Positions 4,441-62,796 of a stretch of DNA of 64,000 nt are shown piece after piece; within the stretch, counting starts at the first letter, position 1; every line of letters starts with the position of its first letter. Origin of the DNA: an uncultured virus (IMG/VR IMGVR_UViG_3300028553_000005) (lineage: Duplodnaviria > Heunggongvirae > Uroviricota > Caudoviricetes); IMG/VR virus record IMGVR_UViG_3300028553_000005, positions 62,001 to 126,000 of that record. One strand, written 5' to 3'. A program made the translations under genes and the position numbers. Under the pieces are notes generated by a model that saw only the letters and a program-made list of their open reading frames with translations, was not told where the DNA came from and did not search any database.

Positions 4441-5085
4441 TTAACCTCCAAAAATTATTGAAAGAGCAATTGCTTTGCCGGTTGATGCGGCCGCACTTGC
4501 TGTTGTATTTGCTGCACTTGCTGTTGTATTTGCTGCAACACCTATGTTGTATGCAGATTGCGCTAAATTAGTTGCTGTATTGATATCGGTATTCTGTGTT
4601 GAATTAATACCATCAATTAAAGATATATTAGAACTCAACCAAGAAGTTAAATTCGATATATTGGTATTCTGAGTAACATTAACACCTTGAAGTATAACTG
4701 TATTGGATGCAGCCGTATTGGCTACGTTTCTGGCAAATCCGTCTTGTGCGGTACCACCACTTAAATTATTGGCAAAATCATAAGCAGCTTGTGCTAGTGT
4801 TACACCAGTATTTGCTTTTGTAAACGAAGCATTGGCTGTATTATAAGAAGCATTTGCATGGCCACGAACCCAAGAGTCTAATGCTACCGCTGTGGTTTGT
4901 CTTGTACCATCAGAAAAATTTATACCATTGGTGCTAGTAATGTATACAACATCAGCATAAACAATTTCGGTTGAACTTGGTATACCTGTGCCTACAGTCC
5001 AAGAATTATTTGCAGACGTATACACATAGCTGACACCATTGATAATCTTGGTTTGTCCATTAAAAGGAAGCTGAGAGTATGTCAT
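4441..5085 (-). CDS. Fibre segment protein (Ala/Asn coiled coil)
   Basis: AQAAYDFAN and QGVNVTQNT modules; hydrophobic C-terminus GKAIALSIIFGG. Confidence 0.6.
   Translation of the reverse strand: MTYSQLPFNGQTKIINGVSYVYTSANNSWTVGTGIPSSTEIVYADVVYITSTNGINFSDGTRQTTAVALDSWVRGHANASYNTANASFTKANTGVTLAQAAYDFANNLSGGTAQDGFARNVANTAASNTVILQGVNVTQNTNISNLTSWLSSNISLIDGINSTQNTDINTATNLAQSAYNIGVAANTTASAANTTASAAASTGKAIALSIIFGG
4493..4537. repeat. 21-bp coding tandem repeat (2 copies, encodes ANTTASA)
   Basis: gcacttgctgttgtatttgct at 4493-4513 and 4514-4534. Confidence 0.85.
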
Positions 5086-5158
5086 GACAAAAAAGAAATT
5101 GTATTAATTTTTAGTGATAGGTTAAGAGTAGAGTAATTAAAAGTTTTTTCATATTATT

Positions 5159-6886
5159 TTATGGAGCAATTGAAGTAATGGCAAGAACACCTCGTCCTGC
5201 ACTTATAAAACTCCACGTGGTGCTTGCTCCCACTTGCACAGGACTGGATCGGTTGGTTTGATTATTTTGTCCTAACTGCCCGTTACTATTGTCACCCCAG
5301 GCCCACATTGTGCCATCTGTCTTGGTGGCCAATCTATTCTGACTACCGGTTGAAGATGCACTTATTAAATTCCAATTTGTTCCTGTTCCCACCTGTGTTG
5401 GGCTGGACCTATTACTGATGTTACCGAGTCCTAACTGTCCAACATTATTGCGACCCCAGGTCCACAAAGTACCGTCAGTCTTGGTGGCCATAGAACCATA
5501 CTCTCCACCACTAACCAGACTCCAATTAGTTGATGTACCAATTTGTGTAGGACTGAGTTTTGTATAAGTTGAAATTTCGTTGAGTCCTAAAGAACCGTAG
5601 TTGTCATTTCTGCCCCATGCCCACAAGGTACCGTCAGTCTTAATAGCTAAACACTGAGAGGTGCTAATACTTATTCTATTCCACGTGGTATTTGCACCCA
5701 CCTGTACGGGGCTGGATCTATCAACTGTATCGCCAAGTCCTAATTTGCCCATGTAGCCTTGGCCCCAAGCCCACAATGTGCCATCAGTTTTGATAGCAAT
5801 AGAAGATGCTGAAGAAGTGTCAATACGGTACCAATCTGTTCCTGCTCCTACTTGTACTGGACTGGATCTGGCAACTGTATTACCAAGTCCTAACTGTCCT
5901 TGTGTGTTAACGCCCCAGGACCACAAGGTGCCGTCAGTCTTGGTGGCCATAATACTGTAGTTACCAACACTAACAAGGTTCCATGTTGTTGCTGTTCCTA
6001 CCTGTGTTGGGCTGGATCTGGCGTAAACTGTATCATTATGACCTAACTGGCCATTAGTATTGTATCCCCAAGTCCATAGAGTACCATCGTTTCTGATAGC
6101 TGCAGAATTGGTTGCACGGCTACTTACTGACTTCCAAGTTGTTCCTGTTCCTACTTGTGTTGGACTAAGCGTGTATCCCCCACTTGTATTTAAACCTCCA
6201 ACACCAAATCCATTCATACCCCAAGAATATAATCTTGTCAGCGGTGTTAGTGTCACAGTTACTTGGAATGTTTTGCTTGAATCTTGTAACTCAGCATCTG
6301 TAGCTACAACACTAAATGTGTATGTGGTTTGAGCACCAATAGAAACTGTACCAGAGAAATATCCGTTGGCAGCTAATGTTGTACCGGTTGGTAATGTAGA
6401 GCCGGCTGCTAAAGAATAAGATGTTGCACTAGTAGCACTAAGGTTAACACCAAAGGCTGTATTGGCTTCTTGATTTGCCAATGGACTTGCAGTGATCCAA
6501 GAAGGTTCAGAGCTGTATGTGATACCAGCAACTTTAATACCAACGCCACCATCAGGATTAACCACATAAAGATTATAAGATGCCGCTGATTTTGTAGGAA
6601 CTTGAACTTGTAGTGTTGTTGAATTTACATATGTAACGGCTGAAGCAGGAGTTGTGTCGATTAATATGGTGGCACCAGATTGAAATTCGGCACCAGTAAC
6701 AACAATGTAACCACCACCTACGTTAACCGCTGTATCATTTAATACTGTAAAGGTATTACTGGCCACGTTGGCATAGAGAACTTTAGGTGCTAGTGTTTTG
6801 GCAAAGGCTGCCGTGGCTGTATTACTTAATTGTACTGTGTCAATTGTGTAACTGGTGATCTGGTTTCCAAGAATCTTTGTGGTCAT
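5159..6886 (-). CDS. IPT/TIG + Ig-like + RCC1/BLIP-II-like beta-propeller protein (putative adhesin)
   Basis: Repeated blades KTDGTLW(S/A/T)WG.N..GQLG....RSSPVQVG; N-terminal ITGAEFQSGA..VTYVNSTTL-type IPT-like domain. Confidence 0.85.
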   Translation of the reverse strand: MTTKILGNQITSYTIDTVQLSNTATAAFAKTLAPKVLYANVASNTFTVLNDTAVNVGGGYIVVTGAEFQSGATILIDTTPASAVTYVNSTTLQVQVPTKSAASYNLYVVNPDGGVGIKVAGITYSSEPSWITASPLANQEANTAFGVNLSATSATSYSLAAGSTLPTGTTLAANGYFSGTVSIGAQTTYTFSVVATDAELQDSSKTFQVTVTLTPLTRLYSWGMNGFGVGGLNTSGGYTLSPTQVGTGTTWKSVSSRATNSAAIRNDGTLWTWGYNTNGQLGHNDTVYARSSPTQVGTATTWNLVSVGNYSIMATKTDGTLWSWGVNTQGQLGLGNTVARSSPVQVGAGTDWYRIDTSSASSIAIKTDGTLWAWGQGYMGKLGLGDTVDRSSPVQVGANTTWNRISISTSQCLAIKTDGTLWAWGRNDNYGSLGLNEISTYTKLSPTQIGTSTNWSLVSGGEYGSMATKTDGTLWTWGRNNVGQLGLGNISNRSSPTQVGTGTNWNLISASSTGSQNRLATKTDGTMWAWGDNSNGQLGQNNQTNRSSPVQVGASTTWSFISAGRGVLAITSIAP

Positions 6887-6899
6887 TTGAATCTATCCT

Positions 6900-6940
6900 A
6901 AAATATGGGTGATTTATACTATATTTATAAATCATCCACA
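6900..6940 (-). terminator. Probable intrinsic terminator closing the modification cassette
   Basis: Inverted repeat 6904-6918 / 6926-6940 (one A-C mismatch, one G-U pair), 7-nt loop, then UUUU on the minus-strand RNA. Confidence 0.6.
6922..6929 (-). promoter_or_regulatory. T4-type late promoter TATAAATA for RCC1 gene 5159..6886
   Basis: Exact TATAAATA, overlapping the terminator hairpin. Confidence 0.7.
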
Positions 6941-6945
6941 TTTGG

Positions 6946-7776
6946 TTAGACTCCCATTTGCTTACGAATCTTGGTGGCTGAAATGTCGGTGATTGATTTA
7001 TCAAAGGTTTCTTGTTCGATTTTGTATCCTACATCACGACCATAGGTGATATTGACGATATTAGGTACCACTTGAATCTCGTATTGGCCTTGATAGATTG
7101 GATCCAAATCTCTACGGATATACGATTTAACTTGTTCAATGGCAAACGGATTAGAACCTTGCCATCCTTGGCAATCTCGAATTTGAATGACTACCTGACC
7201 AGTTTTGGCAATGGCTCGGTCAAACAATGCTCGGTGACCTTCATGCCATGGTTGCCAGCGACCCAACATTTGAACTGTTTCTTTCTTCCAGTCAAACACA
7301 GGACGCCTACGATTTTCAATAATGTGATTACCAATAAACTCAGCCCATTTCTCCGCATTTTGTTCTGTAACACGGAAGTCATATACATCTGGTGGTACAA
7401 ACATTTTATTAGTATCTTCATAACGACCAGCTTCAATTGTGTCAACCCAAATTGTCCAATCGGCTTTGAAATTGTTTCTCATCTCTGGAATAGGTGCCAC
7501 GAAATCACAAATAACATAATCACCACCAGCTTCAAATGCAAACTGTGCCATTCTTAATGATTGCCGAATACGTCCTTCTTTAGAGAAATCCCAATCATTG
7601 AATTTTTTACGAACATCATCAGCATTGAACCAAGTTACTTGAGCATTAAATCCTGTGATAGGTAACATTTCACCATAATCGGCTCGTTCACCATGTTTTT
7701 CTAGGTATTTTTTCAATGCTTCAGCCAAAAATGTTTTACCGGCACCAGGTAAACCCATAATTAAAATCTTTTTCAT
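6946..7776 (-). CDS. Adenylylsulfate kinase-like domain fused to HIGH-family nucleotidyltransferase (putative compact PAPS synthase)
   Basis: P-loop GLPGAGKT, NADDVR, DWDFSKEGRIRQ, DFVAP; C-terminal GRWQPWHEGH, YGRDVG, ISATKIR. Confidence 0.75.
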   Translation of the reverse strand: MKKILIMGLPGAGKTFLAEALKKYLEKHGERADYGEMLPITGFNAQVTWFNADDVRKKFNDWDFSKEGRIRQSLRMAQFAFEAGGDYVICDFVAPIPEMRNNFKADWTIWVDTIEAGRYEDTNKMFVPPDVYDFRVTEQNAEKWAEFIGNHIIENRRRPVFDWKKETVQMLGRWQPWHEGHRALFDRAIAKTGQVVIQIRDCQGWQGSNPFAIEQVKSYIRRDLDPIYQGQYEIQVVPNIVNITYGRDVGYKIEQETFDKSITDISATKIRKQMGV

Positions 7777-8774
7777 ATTTGTTCCTTAATAAAATTATCA
7801 ACGATTGCCAATGATGAACTGATTGCCATATCCATATCGATATAAACATACAATCCACATCTACCAATAAACTGGACCTTGTCGTTTTTTATGTCCTTAT
7901 ACTTATTATATATTGCTCGATTTAAACCTTCTGAATCTTTTACTGGATAATACCGTTCATAATTATTATCTCGGTAATCACAAGGTTCTTCTAATGTATA
8001 TCTCTCACCAAATCCATGTTCAGGAAACAATTCCCATTTTGTAATGCGTGTATATGGTCCATCATCCGTAAAATTAACTACCGATGTTGGCATATCAAAG
8101 TAAGATTTATCGGTAAAATGAAACTTGATTGACCGATATGGTAATTCACCATGACAGTAATCATAATACTCATCTATTGCCATTGAATTAAAAACAAAAT
8201 CATATTCAGTTTCCATTTCTTTAGAAAACTTGGTGTTTAATTTTATTTTTATATTTGAATGATTTAATATATTTCCAAATAGTTTATTATAACCACCTTT
8301 GGGTAGGCATTGGTATTCATCATTTGGAAAATATAATTCGTTTAAATCATTTCTTAGTTTGATACGATTTAATATACTACTATCAATCTTATCGGTCGGC
8401 AAGCCCCACATCTTTTTAGAATAAGGCACATACAGAGTTTCAAACAATTTATCACCTAATATTTTTTGTGTTTCCAAATTAGGTGGTAAAGTTAGATATT
8501 GGCCTTTGTGATATGCTTTGACTTTATGTTGGTATGGTACCCATTCGGTGTATTGGGACAACCATTCAATTACTCTATTGTTATTTGTGTGTAGGATGTG
8601 CGGTCCGTAGCGGTGTACTAGAACACCATCTATCATCTCATCATAACAGTTGCCACCAATATGGCCTCTTTGGTCAATTATGGTAATATTGTAACCACGA
8701 TTGGCCAGTTCTCTGGTTATAACTGAACCTGAGAATCCTGTTCCAACGACCAGTATGTTTTGTTTTCTTCCCAT
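7773..8774 (-). CDS. glf: UDP-galactopyranose mutase
   Basis: VVGTGFSG (FAD binding), IGGNCYD, HRYGPHILHT, LPYRS, YYPV, GRCGLYVYIDMD. Confidence 0.92.
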   Translation of the reverse strand: MGRKQNILVVGTGFSGSVITRELANRGYNITIIDQRGHIGGNCYDEMIDGVLVHRYGPHILHTNNNRVIEWLSQYTEWVPYQHKVKAYHKGQYLTLPPNLETQKILGDKLFETLYVPYSKKMWGLPTDKIDSSILNRIKLRNDLNELYFPNDEYQCLPKGGYNKLFGNILNHSNIKIKLNTKFSKEMETEYDFVFNSMAIDEYYDYCHGELPYRSIKFHFTDKSYFDMPTSVVNFTDDGPYTRITKWELFPEHGFGERYTLEEPCDYRDNNYERYYPVKDSEGLNRAIYNKYKDIKNDKVQFIGRCGLYVYIDMDMAISSSLAIVDNFIKEQI

Positions 8775-9550
8775 AATTTAATTACGGCATCTTTCGTTAT
8801 ATAAAACGGTATGTCCATTTTGTTTGACATATGTACCACTAGTGAACCCATTGGCATAAACATTTTAAATTCTGGTTTATTCCACACCGTGGATATCGTG
8901 TTACCTTCCCAATGATGTTCTTTTTCACCAATAATTAATAACTTATCAAAGTGTTCTTTATACTTTTTAAATATCTTGGCTTGAATCATAAATGATTCTT
9001 GTGTAAACCATGTGCTTCTATAATATCTATGCTGTGTAGGAACAACAAAACATGGCCTATAATATGTTTCATTATATGGATGACTTGGATGATAATATAG
9101 TTGATTGAAATCTTGTGGAAAAATACCTATTTCTAAACCAGTAACCGATGAAAGATATGTCCACGATTCAATCATTTCACCAATGGCACCTGAAAAATGT
9201 AGATAGTCATCTTCTACAATGTACACCAAATCATCATCAGGTAAATTGTAGATGTATTCGTAGGCTACTTGAACTGAGTGCCTAGATTTTTTCTTAGGTG
9301 ATAATCCTTCTTGATTTCTTGGTGGTAAAAAATTGATTGTGACGAAATCGTGTGGTTGAATCAGTTCTTTAAGTATGTCCTGAAATTCAGCAACAGAGTT
9401 ATCATCAATAATGTGTAATGATTTTTCTGGTATATTTTTGAGATTGGTGATAATTGAATTTAAACACCGAAGAATACATTCAGATTTATTTACTATTCTA
9501 TCGGACTGTAGAGAAGTTCTATTACAAGTCCTTAATACAACATGAATCAT
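8717..9550 (-). CDS. GT-A fold glycosyltransferase (GT2-like)
   Basis: LHIIDDNS and VYIVEDDYLH motifs; cluster context. Confidence 0.7.
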   Translation of the reverse strand: MIHVVLRTCNRTSLQSDRIVNKSECILRCLNSIITNLKNIPEKSLHIIDDNSVAEFQDILKELIQPHDFVTINFLPPRNQEGLSPKKKSRHSVQVAYEYIYNLPDDDLVYIVEDDYLHFSGAIGEMIESWTYLSSVTGLEIGIFPQDFNQLYYHPSHPYNETYYRPCFVVPTQHRYYRSTWFTQESFMIQAKIFKKYKEHFDKLLIIGEKEHHWEGNTISTVWNKPEFKMFMPMGSLVVHMSNKMDIPFYITKDAVIKLWEENKTYWSLEQDSQVQL

Positions 9551-10128
9551 AATTTACGAACAGCAGATTGATAACCACTAGGTAACTCAAAAATTTCTAA
9601 TTTATCCCAATAACATTGCATGAAATTATCTACTGCCATTTTAGGCGAGTTGCATGGGTTGTTATCTTTTCTCCACACCATACTGTCATCAAATAACATT
9701 ACACCACCTTTATTCAACAATTCAAATCCTAAAACACAATCTTGTAATACACCTGGTGCTCGGTGATCTCCATCAACATAGATAAAATCGGCTTTGACAC
9801 CACGATTATATAAGTCAATCAATCCATCAAAAGATTTTTTATTAATAAACTCCACCACACCTTTAGGTTCAAATTCTTCTAAGTTACTTAAAAACATTTC
9901 TTTGGTCTGTGGTATATTTTTTTCAGGCAAGTCATCACTATTGTCGTATGGATCAATTGCGTAATGTTTATAATTTGAATTTTGTTGATGACAAATACCA
10001 GTTATGTTAAATGTGCTGTCACCTTCAAAACATCCTATTTCAATTGATACTTTTGGAAAGCCAATTGAACTTACAATGTGTTGAAAACTTCTAATTGTGT
10101 GGTCGTGGAATCTTACGGTTAATTTCAT
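9547..10128 (-). CDS. Class I SAM-dependent methyltransferase (Methyltransf_24-like)
   Basis: IEIGCFEG, DFIYVDGDH, LNKGGVMLFDD. Confidence 0.85.
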   Translation of the reverse strand: MKLTVRFHDHTIRSFQHIVSSIGFPKVSIEIGCFEGDSTFNITGICHQQNSNYKHYAIDPYDNSDDLPEKNIPQTKEMFLSNLEEFEPKGVVEFINKKSFDGLIDLYNRGVKADFIYVDGDHRAPGVLQDCVLGFELLNKGGVMLFDDSMVWRKDNNPCNSPKMAVDNFMQCYWDKLEIFELPSGYQSAVRKL

Positions 10129-10841
10129 GTTTCTAATCTATCATTACGAATTGTTGAACGGCCTTCTAGAGGTCTGCCAAGTATGGTTGTTTTAAGATTA
10201 CCATCTTCTTCTCTTTCTTTAACATCATAGGCGTAGATACCCATCTGATAAATTGGAAATATATCGGCTCGAAGAATGATATCTAATGGCGCACAGATAC
10301 CAAATTTAATTACATGAGAAATCATATTTTTTGCCACAGCAGGATCAATGGCATATGCATGAGCCCTACAAATAAAATGATAGTTTGGTCCTTCTGATGC
10401 ATGAGTAGGTGTTGGTAGAACTGGCCAACCACCGTTGACCTGTTCATTATTACCTAGATATGCGATTGAATTAAATACGGCATGCTTGAGATATGGTTGA
10501 ACCATAATCGAATCATGTTCTAAAATAACAATTGGTTGGTCTATCTCAACACACTTAGCCCACAAAGAAATATGGGACAATGCACAAGCCACTTCACCTC
10601 TCGTCAAGTAATGATCTGTGATTTTCATCATTTTCATTACTGAACTATTTTTAGAATGTTCCGGCTCTTTGATGCGCCGAGAATAACCATCATACGCATC
10701 CCAATACTCGTAAGGCATTTTTACTTGATTACAAGATTCGGCACATCGTAAGGCCACATCTTCAGATTTTTTATTATCTTTAACCCGAATGATGTAAGCC
10801 TTATCTACATCCATATTATACGAAAAAAACAAAGAATTCAT
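10125..10841 (-). CDS. Glycosyltransferase family 25-like
   Basis: YWDAYDG, LTRGEVACALSHISLW, ILEHD, AHAYAI. Confidence 0.82.
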   Translation of the reverse strand: MNSLFFSYNMDVDKAYIIRVKDNKKSEDVALRCAESCNQVKMPYEYWDAYDGYSRRIKEPEHSKNSSVMKMMKITDHYLTRGEVACALSHISLWAKCVEIDQPIVILEHDSIMVQPYLKHAVFNSIAYLGNNEQVNGGWPVLPTPTHASEGPNYHFICRAHAYAIDPAVAKNMISHVIKFGICAPLDIILRADIFPIYQMGIYAYDVKEREEDGNLKTTILGRPLEGRSTIRNDRLET

Positions 10842-10858
10842 AACAAACTTTCAAAAAA

Positions 10859-11281
10859 TTACATTAGTGCGTCAACATCCTCATGTGTAGCGGCTGCATT
10901 AACTTGAATAACACGAGCATCTCTAGTTGACTTGGCGGCTTCAATTTCAGCTTCAAGTGTGGAGATTTGGTCAGCAAACTCTGGTATATTACGCTTCATT
11001 TGCAATTGGTTTTCTAAACGAATTACTTCAAAATTGGCTTGACCAATTAAAGAACCTTTACGCTCATCAACTGACAACTCACGCTTACCCCAAACAATCT
11101 CAATTGGATTTTTGGTAATATCAAATGTATGTGTTGTAAGAATTTCACGGTTAGGTGTGAGGTCTGGAGTAATCTCTACGGCTGCACTCCAACCGGATTG
11201 ACCTTCTGGTGCTGGTGTATCCCAGCAATCTGTTACCTTACCATTCTGAACTCGAACATTATAACCTGATCTTGTTGGCAT
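10859..11281 (-). CDS. Hypothetical protein (possible fibre assembly chaperone)
   Basis: 140-aa ORF with AGGAG ribosome-binding site; helical C-terminus ending AAATHEDVDALM. Confidence 0.5.
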   Translation of the reverse strand: MPTRSGYNVRVQNGKVTDCWDTPAPEGQSGWSAAVEITPDLTPNREILTTHTFDITKNPIEIVWGKRELSVDERKGSLIGQANFEVIRLENQLQMKRNIPEFADQISTLEAEIEAAKSTRDARVIQVNAAATHEDVDALM

Positions 11282-11293
11282 TACTATCTCCTA

Positions 11294-13054
11294 TTACTTT
11301 TTAAAATTTTGTAAATCGACTTTGATCTGATCAAATGGAGCAGACCATTCTCCAAATACTTCTTGGCGATACAGCTTCACCGAATCATACCAGACTGTTG
11401 TGTTTCCTGGTGGAGCCCACAAATAGTAAGGCAATTTAGGTACTACAATCCATGTTGGTATTCCCATGGCACCACAGAGATGTGCAACAGAGGTACATGA
11501 TGTGATAATTAAATCACATGATGCAGCCGCTATTCGTGTTTCTTCCCAATGACCTAGTGGTACTTCTTTTACCCAATATGGTTTGTATTGAGAACCCTCA
11601 TCTCGTTGCAGTGATATAAATTCTGCATCAACATCTTCTAAGGCATCAAATAGTTTTGTTGGTGGGAATATCCGATGTTGTTCATGTTCGAACTGTGGAT
11701 TACCTTGCCACCGTAGACCGATTCTCAAACCTTTATGTGGTTCTACTAATGGTTTATTTATGTATGGTTTTCCTGATATGTCCTTGTATTCGTAACCAAG
11801 AATGGGTATCGTGGACATGGATGGTGCCCAATAATCATGTACAATACCATATACAGCATCACTCTGGCAGACCGCCACGACTCCTTCTATATCACGGAAT
11901 AGTGTCGCCAACGAACCGGAACACGCCACAATCACTTCTCCAGCAATCTTTGCAATATCCCTTGCGTAACGAACTCCGTGTATCTGGTCACCTAATCCAC
12001 CTTCTAGATTTAATAATACGGTACCTTTTGATTTGCCGTCCCACATTGGCATTGGTGATTTTGGTGGTTCATTACCAAACACTCCTTCGTCACGACCACG
12101 GAACAATAGTTTTTCACCTTCTAAAAGTTTACCATGTTGCATGAGATACCAACCACGATTAAAAGCGGCACGATTATTCCATGGTTCTTCTTTCTCTAAT
12201 TTCTGTGCTATCTTCCAACCTTCTTCAAAGTTACCCATTAGACCAGCAGCCAACTGTAAATCAAGGTCGTGAATAGGTTTATTGGCAACTTTTTCTCCTA
12301 ACCAAAATCTTGGTTGTACGAATTCATAATAACGATGCTTCAATACATCTTTAGAATCTTCTTTGTGTTGATAACCTAATTTTGGTTTAACATCATGAAG
12401 GCCTTTTACTTCCCAAATTTCTTCATCTTTTTCTTGTAGATTGGTACCATCAATGGCATTTAAATCATATTCAAAATCTGGTAATTCTAAAAACTCATGA
12501 ACTCGTTTTAATTCTTTTTGTGGATCATTCATCAGATCATCATAGTCAATAATTAAAAAACATTCAGGTGCAAATGAATATCCTTTTTCAAATGTTTGAT
12601 ATGATTCTTTGAGGTGTTTAATCAGGTCATCTTTGAGTAAAAAATGATCCAAATTTTTTGGTTTAGCCACACGAACAAAAGAAGCGGCACAATCTTCTAC
12701 ATTACGAACTGTGGCAATAATTTTAGGTTTATGTCCAAGAACTTTAGACATGGTACGCATGTTCGTATCATCAGCCCAACCTCTAGCTTTATCAAGAATG
12801 ATGGGTTTATCAATGTCATGATATTGAGTTTTACAGATGTTATTTAAAACATGCTGAATCTTTTCTTCTTCCTTTTTCTGATCCGTTTGAGCTCTAGTGG
12901 TCAAACTATCAGCCCATGCTCTTAGAGTACCTACTAGGGTATCTAAAAGATTAGAAGTGGATGTGGCATGAATGCTTGGATTTTGGCTAAGAATAGCAGC
13001 CAATACTGTTGAACCAGAACGTGGAAGTCCTGAAAGAAAATATATGTTTTTCAC
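11294..13054 (-). CDS. Sulfotransferase + TPR-like + GT-B (GT9-like) glycosyltransferase fusion
   Basis: 5'-PSB loop SGLPRSGST, 3'-PB-like TVRNVEDCAAS; helical AAFNRGWYL segment; EGGLGDQI and DLIITSCTSVAHLCGAMG; GTG start. Confidence 0.82.
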   Translation of the reverse strand: MKNIYFLSGLPRSGSTVLAAILSQNPSIHATSTSNLLDTLVGTLRAWADSLTTRAQTDQKKEEEKIQHVLNNICKTQYHDIDKPIILDKARGWADDTNMRTMSKVLGHKPKIIATVRNVEDCAASFVRVAKPKNLDHFLLKDDLIKHLKESYQTFEKGYSFAPECFLIIDYDDLMNDPQKELKRVHEFLELPDFEYDLNAIDGTNLQEKDEEIWEVKGLHDVKPKLGYQHKEDSKDVLKHRYYEFVQPRFWLGEKVANKPIHDLDLQLAAGLMGNFEEGWKIAQKLEKEEPWNNRAAFNRGWYLMQHGKLLEGEKLLFRGRDEGVFGNEPPKSPMPMWDGKSKGTVLLNLEGGLGDQIHGVRYARDIAKIAGEVIVACSGSLATLFRDIEGVVAVCQSDAVYGIVHDYWAPSMSTIPILGYEYKDISGKPYINKPLVEPHKGLRIGLRWQGNPQFEHEQHRIFPPTKLFDALEDVDAEFISLQRDEGSQYKPYWVKEVPLGHWEETRIAAASCDLIITSCTSVAHLCGAMGIPTWIVVPKLPYYLWAPPGNTTVWYDSVKLYRQEVFGEWSAPFDQIKVDLQNFKK

Positions 13055-13148: not shown

Positions 13149-14957
13149 CTATGATAATTTGGCAAACCCGGCGTAAGGCCCCATACTAACTAAAGTCCAA
13201 TTTGTTGCTGATCCTACTTGTATTGGACTGGATCGGGTAACTTTATCATTTCTTCCTAATTGGCCATAATTATTTTGTCCCCAAGACCACAATGTGCCAT
13301 CTGTTTTGGTGGCCGTAAAACTATACGCACCTCCACTAATTAAACTCCAATTTGTTTCTGTTCCTACTTGTGTTGGACTGGATCTATAAACACCTCGATT
13401 ATTGTGTCCTAATTGGCCAAAATCATTTTTTCCCCATGTCCATAAAGTACCATCAGTTTTAGTAGCTGCTTGTATAGGACCGGGTGCACCGATAACAAAA
13501 TTATTTAAACTCCAATTGGTATTTGCTCCAATTTGTACTGGACTCGACCTACGAACTGTATCATTTCTTCCTAATTGGCCATTGTTATTATATCCCCAAC
13601 TCCATAGTGTGCCATTAGTTTTGGTGGCTATAGTATAATTATCTCCGAGTTTTGCTTGACTCCAAGTTGTATCTGATCCTACTTGTATTGGACTGGATCG
13701 GGTAACTCTATCATTTCTTCCTAATTGGCCTTCTTCGTTAATTCCCCACATCCATAAAGTACCATCAGTTTTGGTGGCCGATACAACTCCCACTCGACCA
13801 ACACCTATTTTACTCCAAGTAGTTCCTGATACTTGAACTGGACTAGATCGGTTAACTCTATCATTGCGGCCATGTTGACCAGAATCATTTTGTCCCCATG
13901 TCCATAAAGTACCATCGGTTTTGATAGCTGCAAAGAAATAGGGGCTGATACTTATCAATGACCAATTGGTATTTGTTCCAATTTGTACAGGACTGGATCT
14001 ATTGACTCGATCATTATGTCCTAATTGACCATTACTATTATTTCCCCATGACCATAGGGTACCATCAGTTTTGGTGGCCAACACAGAATACCTTGCCGTA
14101 CTTATTTGATTCCAATTTGTATCTGTTCCTACTTGTGTTGGACTGGATTTAGAAGAAGAACCAATATTTAATCCATCTTCTCCATTCCCAGAATGAAAAC
14201 CCCACACATATAATCCTGGCGCTGGACCTATCGTTACCGTCAAACTAAATGTACGACTTGCATCTTGATTTTCAACGTCAGTTGCTTTCACATCGAATGT
14301 GTAAGTTGTTTGTGTACCAATTGTTACAATACCAGAAAATAATCCGTTAGCGGCCAATGTAGTACCAGCAGGTAGCGATGTGGTGTTTGCATAAGTTATT
14401 GATGAATCGGAGTTTGCGCTCAGATTAACAGAAAAAGATGTATTGGCATTTTGGTTACTTAATGTTGCACCGGTGCTCCATGCTGGGAATGAACTTGTTG
14501 TCAATCCATTAATTCGAATACCTGTACCTCCATTACTGTTAACGACATATACAGGATATGAAGCCGCTGTGAGTGCTGGAACTTGTGCTCTGAGTGTTGT
14601 TGAATTTACAAAAGATACCGCAGGAGCCGCAGTTGATCCAAATACCACAGTTGAACTATTGGTAAATCCTGATCCAGTAATAACAACATATCCACCAGTA
14701 GTATTGGCTGCCGTATCATCTAAAATATTATAAGATGAATCTGCAATTTGAATTGTAGTAATTAGTGGAGATGCTGAGTTTGCCAGTATGGCTGCATTGG
14801 TATTTGCAGTTGCAAAAGCAGCAGCTGCCACAGCAGTAGCAATAGTTGCAAGAGTGTTTGCATTAGTTGCAGTAGCTAAACCACTTGCAACAGATGAATC
14901 AAGTTTATCTGAAGTAATTGATGATGCGAGGATATTGTTTGCTGTTATTTTTGCCAT
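13149..14957 (-). CDS. IPT/TIG + Ig-like + RCC1-like propeller protein
   Basis: Repeated KTDGTLWSWG..GQLG.ND.V.RSSP.QVG blades. Confidence 0.85.
   Translation of the reverse strand: MAKITANNILASSITSDKLDSSVASGLATATNANTLATIATAVAAAAFATANTNAAILANSASPLITTIQIADSSYNILDDTAANTTGGYVVITGSGFTNSSTVVFGSTAAPAVSFVNSTTLRAQVPALTAASYPVYVVNSNGGTGIRINGLTTSSFPAWSTGATLSNQNANTSFSVNLSANSDSSITYANTTSLPAGTTLAANGLFSGIVTIGTQTTYTFDVKATDVENQDASRTFSLTVTIGPAPGLYVWGFHSGNGEDGLNIGSSSKSSPTQVGTDTNWNQISTARYSVLATKTDGTLWSWGNNSNGQLGHNDRVNRSSPVQIGTNTNWSLISISPYFFAAIKTDGTLWTWGQNDSGQHGRNDRVNRSSPVQVSGTTWSKIGVGRVGVVSATKTDGTLWMWGINEEGQLGRNDRVTRSSPIQVGSDTTWSQAKLGDNYTIATKTNGTLWSWGYNNNGQLGRNDTVRRSSPVQIGANTNWSLNNFVIGAPGPIQAATKTDGTLWTWGKNDFGQLGHNNRGVYRSSPTQVGTETNWSLISGGAYSFTATKTDGTLWSWGQNNYGQLGRNDKVTRSSPIQVGSATNWTLVSMGPYAGFAKLS
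13208..13730. repeat. 58-bp near-identical direct repeat between propeller blades
   Basis: 13208-13265 vs 13673-13730, one mismatch. Confidence 0.85.
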
Positions 14958-14962
14958 GTAAT

Positions 14963-16513
14963 TTATGCATTTCTTTTTGCGATTGATGAGTAGTGTCCAG
15001 CATATACTTCACTCCAATCTGTTGCTGTTCCAATTTGAACAGGACTGGATCTGTTATTTATATCGTTTTGTCCTAATTGACCATTACCGTTATTTCCCCA
15101 AGACCATAGTGTGCCGTTAGATTTTAATGCCGTTACTCCATGATAATCACACACGGCATTTAACCAAGTTGTTTCTACTCCAACTTGAACTGGACTGGAT
15201 CTCTGAATTGAATCATTTAAACCTAATGATCCATATTCGGTATTATTCCATCCCCAAGTCCATAGTGTGCCATCAGTTTTAATACCTACAGAATTTCTTG
15301 ATGTTGAAATTGTATTCCAAGTACCTGTACCTATTTGTACCGGACTGGACCTATTAATTTTGTTATTTAATCCAAGTTCGCCTAAAGAATTTGATCCCCA
15401 TACCCATAGTGTACCATCTGTTTTAATAGCTGCAGGATAGGCCGTATCACAAGGACTTTCGGAGAATTTTAACCAATTTGTTAACGCACCAATTTGGACC
15501 GGAGAGGACCTATCAATTGTCGAATTGTTGCCAATTGCATATCCTGGACCCCAAGCCCATGCCGTGCCATCGGTTTTAATAGCATAAAGATTGTATGCTG
15601 CAGTTTTAATTTGAGCCCAATTTGTCATTGTGCCAACTTGAGTTGGACTGGACCTATCGGTTATACTATTTAATCCTAAAGCGCCATAATTACCATAACC
15701 CCATGTCCACAATGTACCATCAGTTTTAATGCCTGCAGAAAAATAATAACCAATGCTTATGGAAGACCAATTTCCTGTACCAATTTGAGTTGGACTGGAC
15801 CTATTAATTATATCATTTAATCCTAAGTTACCACGAAAATTTCGACCCATCGCCCACAAAGTTTTTGTTGGTGATTTTCCTTTTAAAAGTAATGTATGTG
15901 CAGCTCCACTAGTAGCGTTTGACCACAAATAAGCTTCACCAATTTGAACAGGACTGGACCTAGCAATTGCATCATTTGTGCCTAATTGTCCAAAAAAATT
16001 TTCTCCCCATCCCCATAGATTAGACAATTGACTACCAGGAAAATCACTTGTTATTAAACCTCTTGGTCGAATTGCAGTACCGCCACTACTATTCACCACA
16101 TATACAGGATAAGTTCCTGATGAGATGGCTGGAATCTGTGCTCTAAGTGTGGATGAATTCACCAATGTGGTTGTTAATGCGGTGTTACTGGATCCAACCA
16201 CAACAATTGCGCCGGATTGAAAATTGGAACCTGTAATTTGTAAGTATGCACCGGTGGTATTGGCTTCGGCAATATTTAGAACATTATAAGATGAATCTGT
16301 AACTGATACTACATTAATTGTTGGAGGCAAAGCGGCAAGCTCTTGAGTTTGTAATGTAACAAATGTATTAACTGCTTGTGCGGCCACATTGGCAGCAATT
16401 GCCAAATCATTAGCAATACCTGCGGCATTAAATGTGTTTGCTACACCAGAATCAAATACAAAAGACTTGATTGAGTTGTTTGCAATATTAATCGCACGGA
16501 CATATTGAGTCAT
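14963..16513 (-). CDS. IPT/TIG + RCC1-like propeller protein
   Basis: Same blade consensus; lacks the Ig-like linker domain of its paralogues. Confidence 0.85.
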   Translation of the reverse strand: MTQYVRAINIANNSIKSFVFDSGVANTFNAAGIANDLAIAANVAAQAVNTFVTLQTQELAALPPTINVVSVTDSSYNVLNIAEANTTGAYLQITGSNFQSGAIVVVGSSNTALTTTLVNSSTLRAQIPAISSGTYPVYVVNSSGGTAIRPRGLITSDFPGSQLSNLWGWGENFFGQLGTNDAIARSSPVQIGEAYLWSNATSGAAHTLLLKGKSPTKTLWAMGRNFRGNLGLNDIINRSSPTQIGTGNWSSISIGYYFSAGIKTDGTLWTWGYGNYGALGLNSITDRSSPTQVGTMTNWAQIKTAAYNLYAIKTDGTAWAWGPGYAIGNNSTIDRSSPVQIGALTNWLKFSESPCDTAYPAAIKTDGTLWVWGSNSLGELGLNNKINRSSPVQIGTGTWNTISTSRNSVGIKTDGTLWTWGWNNTEYGSLGLNDSIQRSSPVQVGVETTWLNAVCDYHGVTALKSNGTLWSWGNNGNGQLGQNDINNRSSPVQIGTATDWSEVYAGHYSSIAKRNA

Positions 16514-61096: not shown

Positions 61097-62796
61097 TAAG
61101 CAAATACGAACAAGCAGCGACAACCAGAAAACGAGGAGTCTTAGGTACTATTACCGATAGATTAGTCGCTGGCCAAGGATTTGGTCAATCCATTGGTGGA
61201 GGCGTATCTGAATCATTCAAAGCAAAAACTACAGGTTTAAAAGAAAAATTTGATCCGTTAAACATTGCAAAGATATTAACGGGTAATCTTGGTATGGCTT
61301 TCTTAGGTAAGATAACAGGTAGAAAACCTGAAGATATGCAATACTTCTTCAATAAAAATAGAAAAAAAGGTGAGAAACCTTATTCTTTTACACAACCACA
61401 AGAAACTAAAGTTGGCAATGTAGAAACTGCCTTTTATAGTAAAATTAGAGAAGGTCAAAGAGGTTCATTACAAAAAGGTGATAATGTGGCTACTGTAGCC
61501 GCTCGTTTGGTTAATGTCATGAAAACCTTTTATGAAAAAGAAAATTTAAATCGTGAGTTAGACTATAATTTTGAAGAAGAAGTTCAAGCAGAAGATGCCA
61601 AACGGCATGAAAATTTAATTAATGAAATTAAAAAATTAAAAGATAAAAAACCAGCAAAAACGGATATTGAAAAAGTCAAAAAAGATTTAAAAATTGAAGA
61701 GCCGCCTACAAAAAAACCTGAAGAATCAAAGAAACCAGAAACACCTGCATCCACAGTTACATCACCTACTGTTGCAACCACCTCTGCAGCCGCACCAGTA
61801 GTAACTACTGTTGTTAGTAAAGCCGTTACTAAAGCCAAAGATATTCCAGGTGTGGCCACGGTTGTTAGTAAAGCAGAAAAAATTATACAACCAACAAAGA
61901 CTGTACCAAAAATAACAAAAGAAATAGATAAGCCAGTCGCTGGTGTGGTTGAAGCTGCCAAAGCAACTAAAATTCCAACACCTTCTGTAGGAGGTGCGGC
62001 GGCCATTGGTGGTACTGCCGCAGTGGTCGCTGGTATAGGATCGGCTTTGGCTGAAGTTGGTATAACAAATGAGTATGCACAAAAAGCTATTTTAGGTAAT
62101 GTTGGTAAAGAATCAGGATTTACTGCAAAATATGAAACTGGTTATGCCAATACTTCAAACGATAGAATCCGTAAAATATTTGGCAGTAGAGTTGCAGGTC
62201 TTACAGATGACCAACTAAATGAAATTAAAAAAGATGATTCTAAATTTTTTGAAACAGTTTACGGTTATCAGACTGCCAAAGGTCAAGAGTTAGGTAATAA
62301 AGAACCAGGTGATGGATTTAAATATCGTGGCCGTGGTCTGATTCAATTGACAGGAAAAGATAACTATAACAGAATTGGTAAACAAATTGGTGCCGATTTA
62401 GTTTCCAATCCAGACTTAGTAAATGATTCAGTATTGGCACCAAAAATTGTTGCAGCTTTTGTTAAAAATAAATTAGGTAGTAGAGTAAATTCATTTAAGA
62501 GCCAATCAGAAGCGAATAACGAAATAACTAAAGCAATCGTTGGTGCCAGTGTAGATTTAACAAGAGGGTTTGGTGCTGAACAAATGGCCAAAGTTGAAGC
62601 CTTCACCAGTTCACCTTCTGGTGAGGCTGTATATGCTATGTCGAAACAAAATCAAGAATTAAAAGAACAAGTACCTGTAACAAATATAGCAGTAAACAAT
62701 ACCAAAACAATCATTAATGCTGGTGGTGGTCAATCCAGACAAATTATAAGTACAGCACAGATTGACGATTATCCAGTTTTAGAAACAACAATATAA
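61093..62796 (+). CDS. Tape-measure/ejection-like protein with GH19 (lysozyme-superfamily) domain
   Basis: GNVGKESGF...LGNKEPGDGFKYRGRGLIQLTGKDNY; follows gp26/gp51. Confidence 0.75.
   Translation: MISKYEQAATTRKRGVLGTITDRLVAGQGFGQSIGGGVSESFKAKTTGLKEKFDPLNIAKILTGNLGMAFLGKITGRKPEDMQYFFNKNRKKGEKPYSFTQPQETKVGNVETAFYSKIREGQRGSLQKGDNVATVAARLVNVMKTFYEKENLNRELDYNFEEEVQAEDAKRHENLINEIKKLKDKKPAKTDIEKVKKDLKIEEPPTKKPEESKKPETPASTVTSPTVATTSAAAPVVTTVVSKAVTKAKDIPGVATVVSKAEKIIQPTKTVPKITKEIDKPVAGVVEAAKATKIPTPSVGGAAAIGGTAAVVAGIGSALAEVGITNEYAQKAILGNVGKESGFTAKYETGYANTSNDRIRKIFGSRVAGLTDDQLNEIKKDDSKFFETVYGYQTAKGQELGNKEPGDGFKYRGRGLIQLTGKDNYNRIGKQIGADLVSNPDLVNDSVLAPKIVAAFVKNKLGSRVNSFKSQSEANNEITKAIVGASVDLTRGFGAEQMAKVEAFTSSPSGEAVYAMSKQNQELKEQVPVTNIAVNNTKTIINAGGGQSRQIISTAQIDDYPVLETTI

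Follow-up and report, generated by a model that had tools for sequence, protein, structure and literature searches.

In this work we analyzed a 64,000-nucleotide stretch of DNA (the window; positions 62,001 to 126,000 of the IMG/VR record IMGVR_UViG_3300028553_000005, an uncultured virus of the Caudoviricetes) and, within it, a gene encoding a 276-residue protein in which an adenosine 5'-phosphosulfate (APS) kinase-like domain is followed by a small adenylyltransferase domain of the HIGH superfamily. We consider it reasonably likely that this phage protein is a self-contained synthase of 3'-phosphoadenosine 5'-phosphosulfate (PAPS) that supplies the phage's sulfotransferase; the small domain probably activates sulfate. 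The C-terminal domain of 117 residues would use its HxGH and S-x-T-x-x-R motifs to move AMP from ATP to sulfate, yielding APS and pyrophosphate, and the N-terminal domain would phosphorylate the 3'-OH of APS to form PAPS, a reaction that would pull forward the unfavorable adenylylation of sulfate. PAPS would then be used by the phage's own sulfotransferase, which is encoded in the same co-oriented cluster of glycan-modification genes. A compact PAPS synthase serving the neighboring sulfotransferase had already been suggested from inspection of the sequence (hereafter the sequence-only reading), and it remains the reading that fits best and that the gene context supports. We infer both substrates, the direction of the flux and the sulfated target from an architecture, homologies, conserved residues and gene contexts that were directly observed. 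Given that sequence and fold leave the acceptor open, it is the gene context that decides: APS is common to the kinase partner, to the canonical CysC, to the PAPS-dependent sulfotransferases and to APS reductase, which points to an ATP sulfurylase as the enzyme that would link sulfate to this metabolite.

An APS-kinase-like domain fused to a small adenylyltransferase domain

The 276-residue open reading frame (ORF) reported by the sequence-only reading is present at 6946..7776, stop codon included, and lies on the minus strand, which had not been given; all the features of the gene described below are on this strand. The ATG shares the sequence ATGA with the stop codon of the UDP-galactopyranose mutase gene located upstream of it, and AAGGA precedes the start by 9 nt. 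The translation contains GLPGAGKT (residues 8-15), GRWQPWHEGH (172-181), YGRDVGY (245-251) and ISATKIR (265-271), so that the P-loop, HEGH, GRDVG and ISATKIR motifs noticed earlier are all there. Among 46 diverse relatives that were aligned, K14, R56, F64, G246, R247, G250 and R271 do not vary. Since more than 8000 database proteins match the fusion protein in a word-indexed search and these residues are invariant in the relatives, the ORF is a genuine gene and not a chance frame. From the same alignment an AlphaFold2 model of the whole protein was built, with a pLDDT that averages 92.9.

The N-terminal half (residues 1-158; 7303..7776) was recognized by the Pfam model APS_kinase (PF01583) at 32.4 bits, above the cut-off of 21.1 (E 1.1e-7); the match extends over residues 4-105 and covers only positions 5-94 of the 152 of the profile, and the NCBIfam equivalog TIGR00455 stays below its cut-off (22.7 versus 138.7 bits). 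In a Foldseek search with the whole model, the PDB matches listed to rank 33 were all APS kinases, APS-kinase domains or APS-kinase-like domains of larger enzymes, the best being 7yq1_C (E 2e-6, TM on the target 0.66), and with the family profile, APS kinases of solved structure were matched with E values from 1e-15 to 1e-12. Residues ~27-46 form an insertion that is poorly modeled. The P-loop is encoded at 7732..7755, and the segment D53-x-x-R56...F64...R69 (residues 53-69; 7570..7620) was located by alignment to solved APS kinases; in profile alignments, D53, R56, F64 and R69 align with Asp480, Arg483, Phe492 and Arg497 of the CysC of Mycobacterium tuberculosis, and each is either invariant across the 46 relatives or conserved in at least 90% of them. 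Passages of a study of that enzyme (PMC4373884) describe as residues contacting the ribose, adenine and phosphosulfate of APS the last Asp of the LDGD motif, a pair of Arg that bind the phosphosulfate, and the first of the Phe that stack on the adenine. The kinase half thus has in common with CysC the P-loop, the LDGD Asp, and the two Arg and the Phe that hold APS. The APS-kinase-like N-terminal domain that had been proposed is therefore borne out by Pfam, by the modeled structure and by the conservation of the residues that contact APS, and we predict with fair confidence that this half is an APS 3'-kinase and a putative member of the CysC family.

The C-terminal domain, for which about 110 residues of HIGH-family sequence had been estimated, spans residues 160-276 (117 residues; 6949..7299), matches the NadM profile and shows a HIGH-type fold in a domain model with a pLDDT of 95.3; it was modeled alone given that Foldseek returned only kinase-domain matches for the whole model. 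GRWQPWHEGH (7234..7263) is the HxGH nucleotidyl-transfer motif, whose residues G, R, Q, P, H, G and H show no variation across a 31-sequence alignment of the domain. The motif YGRDVGY (7024..7044), with G246, R247 and G250 invariant, is specific to the family; D248 is not conserved, since SAR11 members read GRG, and the "GRD" of the sequence-only reading is really G-R-x, its GR part being upheld and its D part not. The conserved ISATKIR (6964..6984) represents the C-terminal S-x-T-x-x-R motif, and aligns with SGTEIR of the nicotinamide mononucleotide (NMN) adenylyltransferase (NMNAT) 1f9a and, in a weak sub-alignment, with ISGTEIR of the ATP sulfurylase Sat of Aquifex. At the level of family models only faint matches were obtained: Pfam CTP_transf_like at E 0.0098, and NCBIfam NadM/NMNAT models on residues 170-238 at E 3e-6.

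An adenylyltransferase and an APS kinase are likewise joined in one chain in the Sat-CysC enzymes and in the animal PAPS synthases (Aquifex aeolicus 2gks, human PAPSS1 1x6v), the animal ones with the same kinase-then-transferase order as the phage protein. The kinase folds match, and the HxxH and S-x-T-x-x-R motifs are shared with 2gks in weak sub-alignments. In contrast, those chains have 546-630 residues versus 276, and their transferase is of a different kind from the 117-residue phage domain, which belongs to the NadM branch and lacks PF01747. The Sat transferase comprises roughly 350-400 residues and includes a PUA-like domain.

The family is large, as 2079 representatives match at E <= 1e-3 in a library of representatives at 50% identity, and it is annotated in the sources as "adenylylsulfate kinase", "NMP kinase" or "hypothetical". 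The small domain follows the APS-kinase-like domain in the phage of the window and precedes one in P0205, and a separate gene that overlaps an APS-kinase-like gene encodes it in SAR11 and some viral contigs. P0242 joins it to a complete CysC of the canonical type (PF01583 E 6e-63), a form hereafter called NT-CysC. Given that the 90% cluster of P0242 has 7 members from several sources and that this form is present, with 62-99% identity, in 36 of 37 marine metagenome loci, the NT-CysC fusion is no assembly accident. Among 401 alphaproteobacterial genomes the search with P0242 gave only ordinary CysNC and no NT-CysC carrier, a full-length match in G474 being actually CysD plus CysNC; a scan of viral contigs with P0242 detected only forms that combine the small domain with the kinase-like one.

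Sulfotransferase genes and the APS reductase genes of SAR11

The neighboring sulfotransferase mentioned by the sequence-only reading is a 586-residue protein encoded at 11294..13054 on the minus strand (PF13469 E 3.4e-19; PF00685 E 2.4e-13); its gene is located upstream of the fusion gene, on the same strand and with five co-oriented genes between them. The profile match is confined to residues 6-194, the N-terminal PAPS-type domain, and the ~330 C-terminal residues have no Pfam match at E <= 0.01. This protein is presumed to be the consumer of the product of the fusion enzyme.

The association was followed in all the fetched loci with our own hidden Markov model (HMM) built from eight sulfotransferase domains. 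A sulfotransferase was found in 57 of the 80 close viral loci, always on the same strand as the family gene and in 55 cases within 5 kb; the divergent viral loci gave 24 of 77 (24 on the same strand, 23 within 5 kb), the non-core cellular loci, mostly from soil Alphaproteobacteria, 9 of 44 (7 and 9, respectively), and the metagenome loci with NT-CysC 7 of 37 (2 and 7). The sulfotransferase ORF directly adjoins the family gene in several of the viral contigs. PF13469 or PF00685 was confirmed for every neighbor submitted to Pfam, which added one more locus (L125). As a baseline, the sulfotransferase domain of the window matches by tblastn 9 of 50,697 phage records, from Synechococcus phages and marine single-cell viruses; 15 phage records hold a homologue of the fusion gene, and none of them is among those 9.

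A second context was found in SAR11 (Pelagibacteraceae), for which 81 genomes, whose counts are not phylogenetically independent, were sampled. The family is strongly present in 57 of them and AprA in 53, with 52 genomes holding both, 5 only the family, 1 only AprA and 23 neither (Fisher p 2e-14). Sat was detected in 3 genomes, CysD in 4 (beside a CysNC-like frame of 614-617 residues) and PF13469 sulfotransferases in 34. The family occurs in 49 of the 50 genomes that have AprA and lack Sat, and in none of the 4 with CysD. An ATP sulfurylase is the sulfate-to-APS link, otherwise absent from these genomes. In agreement with these counts, passages of PMC5069961 describe 'Ca. P. ubique' as devoid of cysDNCHIJ and sat, with a table that gives "cysC" in exactly the strains with aprA, and a passage of bioRxiv 10.1101/2022.09.23.509140 states that ATP sulfurylase is absent in most SAR11; aprAB are, according to passages of PMC12636525, core genes of SAR11 under strong purifying selection. 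The ATP sulfurylase that SAR11, the most abundant bacteria of the ocean, have long seemed to lack may be a relative of the small domain.

In nine of these genomes the small domain stands alone, ~1.4 kb upstream of aprA and on the same strand. The gene order, which was read in one region only (genome G049), is MFS transporter, TenA-like protein, small domain, a 263-residue multi-pass membrane protein, AprB, AprA, a 116-residue ORF and TauE/SafE, all on the same strand. Membrane proteins of this type, of 263-273 residues and without Pfam match, are encoded directly upstream of aprB (L366 4012-4803; L369 3908-4729), and by position they look like AprM. In Allochromatium vinosum, according to the abstract of PMC3779200, sat is co-transcribed with aprMBA; compared with that arrangement, the small domain of G049 holds the place of sat, upstream of the membrane protein, aprB and aprA. 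Unlike the sat product of A. vinosum, the SAR11 small domain is no Sat homologue.

The same observations could be explained by a different chemistry on APS or an APS-like adenylate: the two domains together might carry out, for example, the phosphorolysis of APS to ADP and sulfate, the adenylylation of another small oxyanion such as selenate, phosphite or a phosphonate, or the synthesis of a 3'-phospho-adenylyl donor other than PAPS. The context names APS or an adenylate as the common metabolite and leaves the reaction unspecified, the lid of the kinase half is atypical, and in SAR11 containing aprBA the physiological direction would be APS consumption, according to passages of PMC12636525. 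However, HIGH-superfamily enzymes use a nucleoside triphosphate and release pyrophosphate, a sulfate acceptor is the simplest account of the fusion to a canonical CysC together with the PAPS-type sulfotransferase neighbors, and no second candidate for the ATP-sulfurylase step appears in 49 of the 50 genomes with AprA and without Sat; we therefore regard this explanation as unlikely.

The glycan genes that surround the phage gene suggest yet another role, in which the kinase half alone would use APS made by the host and the small domain would be a nucleotidyltransferase for a phospho-sugar or phospho-alcohol (of the CDP-glycerol or ADP-heptose type) that serves the adjacent glycan genes. The gene lies inside a cluster of glycosyltransferase, mutase and methyltransferase genes, standalone small domains carry the automatic name "cytidyltransferase" in the ESM Atlas, and the cytidylyltransferase-type folds Fom1, GCT and HldC match the domain with Z 7.0-8.5 in a wide VIA search. 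Against this, the run of genes from the standalone SAR11 domain to TauE/SafE, in the one region read, includes no sugar gene, fusions with the canonical CysC occur in loci without sugar genes, the small domain tracks AprA and not glycan clusters in the 81 genomes, and GRxQPxHxGH is of the adenylyl-specific NadM type. This role seems quite improbable to us.

In 36 SAR11 loci (L115-L164, match at ~8001-8758) one ORF encodes the kinase and another, in a different frame and overlapping it by ~30 nt, the small domain; the pair is flanked by a Rieske oxygenase gene and an enoyl-CoA hydratase gene. Readings as a CoA-synthase-like enzyme or as a replacement of NadD, prompted by the enoyl-CoA hydratase and by CoA-binding neighbors, were rejected: a CoaE gene is present in G001 and G002 along with separate CTP_transf_like genes of 167 and 176/192 residues, the sizes expected of CoaD and NadD, and so the small domain is an extra enzyme in these genomes and does not stand for their NAD or CoA adenylyltransferase. 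A second APS-kinase match in G003 turned out to be an unrelated APS-kinase-like protein of 364 residues in a phosphoenolpyruvate-utilizing cluster (L322 3956-5050, G003:C2). Its N-terminal half matches PF01583 at E 4e-35, its C-terminal half is of unknown nature, and its gene adjoins a 775-residue ORF and two smaller ORFs.

The acceptor of the small domain and the points that weigh against sulfate activation

Several observations weigh against the assignment of the phage protein as a PAPS synthase, and those on the small domain itself are the following. In profile comparisons it is closest to the NadM-type NMNATs (2qjt_B E 2.9e-11, 1f9a_A E 1.5e-10, over strands 1-3). No match to the ATP-sulfurylase family PF01747 was obtained in Pfam at E <= 0.01. 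When the 31-sequence domain alignment was compared by hhalign with 13 Sat sequences from the sampled genomes, only the HxxH stretch was aligned (24 columns, probability 14.6%) and the GRD regions of both were left unaligned; QTRNPxHRxH and GRDHAG are invariant in the Sat alignment, whereas the phage protein has RWQPWHEGH and YGRDVGY. The fold search did not discriminate, with Z 10.4 for NMNAT, NadM-Nudix and phosphopantetheine adenylyltransferase (PPAT) versus Z 9.1 for the Sat of Thermus (1v47_B, rmsd 2.9, 113 of 117 residues aligned, rank 6 in the wide VIA search, in which the remaining Sat structures gave Z 5.7-6.6); in the Foldseek search with the domain-only model, PPAT and NMNAT were listed and Sat was missing from the first 50 ranks. 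Hence the argument for a Sat-like domain that had been built on motifs is not supported, and the likeness of GRWQPWH to NMN adenylyltransferases, also pointed out by the sequence-only reading, is substantiated by the NadM-type profile match (E 3e-11). The structural comparison with Sat and NMNAT that it had proposed establishes a HIGH fold common to both and does not separate their specificities. On the profile evidence the small domain derives in shortened form from the NadM-type NMN adenylyltransferases and is no Sat homologue, and its acceptor substrate is left unfixed by sequence and fold.

The remaining points concern the kinase and the distribution of the family. The lid region of the kinase half, which in APS kinases carries the second stacking Phe and the ribose-binding Lys, is shortened and falls outside the APS-kinase profile match, for which reason we class this half as a putative member of CysC. 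The profile alignments to APS kinases end before the lid; a segment D121-T-N...F126 is conserved in the family and may at most be a candidate counterpart of the lid residues. Three SAR11 genomes hold Sat and the family together, the co-distribution of the family with AprA is partly phylogenetic and does not represent independent events, and the enrichment of the family in genomes with PF13469 is weak (28 of 34 versus 29 of 47, p 0.05). With our HMM, none of the 36 SAR11 core-context loci showed a sulfotransferase nearby. Among isolate phages, homologues with 35-40% identity are found in the Sano-like phages of Xylella and Xanthomonas and in Stenotrophomonas phage DLP_6; Sano, Bacata and DLP_6 have no PF13469 match, PF00685 not having been searched genome-wide, and in Sano (L001 5963-7732) and Bacata (L003 6559-7735) a NADAR-domain gene lies upstream and overlaps the start of the homologue. 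The Sano-like phages also encode, two genes upstream of the homologue, a 195-residue protein with sub-threshold similarity to sulfotransferases; for Sano gp33 this similarity is only sub-threshold (Pfam Sulfotransfer_4 E 4e-4, and TPST1 as the sole PDB match, E 1.3).

The kinship with NadM and the NADAR-domain gene would both fit a true adenylyltransferase of NMN or of nicotinic acid mononucleotide, acting in the supply of NAD (for instance versus a NAD-depleting defense) or coupling NAD metabolism to a nucleotide kinase. The NadM enzymes (1f9a, 2qjt, 1ej2) share with the small domain the motifs GRxQPxHxGH, NPF and S-x-T-x-x-R. Nevertheless, the IGS of NadM is V-R-D in the small domain, and R200 and Y-G-R247-x-V-G-Y are invariants specific to the family. 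Positions 72-88 of the query correspond to residues 68-109 of 1f9a, so that the stretch from strand 3 to the C-terminal motif is ~25 residues shorter, and no match exists beyond residue 134 of the 168 of 1f9a, the C-terminal helices of NadM being absent. The scores of the NCBIfam NMNAT models are well under their cut-offs (24-27 versus 127-181 bits; TIGR01527, 24.3 versus 181.2). In addition, the small domain is joined to an APS-kinase-like partner or, in P0242, to a canonical CysC; the neighbors are sulfotransferases and aprBA with no NAD genes, so that the contexts concern APS and not NAD as in NadM; and SAR11 already has the NadD-sized CTP_transf_like gene of 176/192 residues. We thus consider a role in NAD synthesis very unlikely.

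The missing NadM segment is presumably the one that binds NMN, and the loss of ~25 residues on the acceptor side would fit an acceptor much smaller than NMN. In the ATP sulfurylase reaction an oxyanion attacks the alpha-phosphate of ATP and pyrophosphate leaves, as in the HIGH-type adenylyltransferases. Such chemistry suits a domain shorn of much of the acceptor side of NadM, and sulfate would be an acceptor of this kind.

Possible significance and the gene block of the phage

To our knowledge, PAPS synthesis is known from two types of ATP sulfurylase, Sat and CysDN. In the literature covered, which did not extend to subscription journals and supplements, no description of the small domain as an ATP sulfurylase or as a sulfate-activating enzyme was found. 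Taken jointly, the proposals that the small domain is a third type of ATP sulfurylase, derived from NadM and not from Sat or CysD, that it is the "missing" sat of SAR11, that phages carry it in a portable sulfation module and that many viral "cysC" genes serve sulfation have in our estimation slightly better than even chances. If so, the 117-residue domain would be the smallest sulfate-activating enzyme known and a case in which one enzyme family took over the role of another. Alone or paired with the kinase, it would close the sulfite-to-sulfate route of AprBA in SAR11 and supply PAPS to the sulfotransferases of the cell, and it would explain why strong purifying selection acts on the aprBA of SAR11, which papers describe as lacking sat. 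In T4-like phages that infect streamlined aquatic bacteria, the fused form would come together with a sulfotransferase, independently of the sulfate pathway of the host. Many viral "cysC" genes would belong to a phage-encoded pathway for the sulfation of glycans instead of serving host sulfur assimilation. Passages of surveys of aquatic viromes (PMC12713726, PMC8066274, bioRxiv 10.1101/2020.08.24.253096) list the viral cysC as an unvalidated sulfur gene and read it as assimilatory sulfate reduction; members of the present family are likewise annotated as adenylylsulfate kinase, and those passages mention neither a fused adenylyltransferase nor a sulfotransferase neighbor.

The window belongs to a single viral contig of 136,428 bp, which corresponds to a T4-like myovirus with genes for gp23, gp20, gp32, gp59, UvsW/X/Y, RegA, the tail sheath and the terminase. 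By the major capsid protein its nearest isolates are Methylophilales phage Melnitz and Pelagibacter phage Mosig (65% identity), and no near-identical phage DNA was found for positions 5000-12000 of the window by megablast against the 50,697 phage records.

Between the sulfotransferase and the fusion gene, the co-oriented genes (7773..11281, minus strand) encode, in this order, a 140-residue ORF of unknown function (10859-11281) and, according to Pfam, a GT25 glycosyltransferase (10125-10841), a methyltransferase (9547-10128), a GT2 glycosyltransferase (8717-9550) and the UDP-galactopyranose mutase (7773-8774). The glycan and sulfation genes are bracketed by three large proteins in which TIG/He_PIG Ig-like domains precede RCC1-repeat propellers (5159-6886, 13149-14957 and 14963-16513), which adjoin neck and tail genes. 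They may be fibers or decoration proteins, and are possibly the targets of the glycan modification. Outside the window, the same phage has a second cluster of glycan type (G000:C1:9668-16406, L361) with HtrL/YibB, two methyltransferases, a NAD-dependent epimerase and a GT2. Amid its replication genes (L363) are a 262-residue fusion of a cytidylyltransferase-like domain with a cupin of the mannose-6-phosphate-isomerase type (G000:C1:45321-46109) and a 421-residue DruA-like protein (G000:C1:40170-41435).

Other recurrent neighbors were noticed in the family. In 13 of the 37 metagenome loci, the NT-CysC gene is followed by a gene for a conserved protein of ~660-680 residues without Pfam match (L242-L275; e.g. 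L254 4540-6582), and TPR-2-oxoglutarate-oxygenase proteins and a POT transporter are also found repeatedly near it. A calcineurin-like phosphoesterase gene adjoins the homologue in one contig of a metagenome-assembled genome (L094 806-1879) and in Stenotrophomonas phage DLP_6 (L002 6025-6822); it is conceivable that this candidate enzyme removes 3'-phosphoadenosine 5'-phosphate (PAP).

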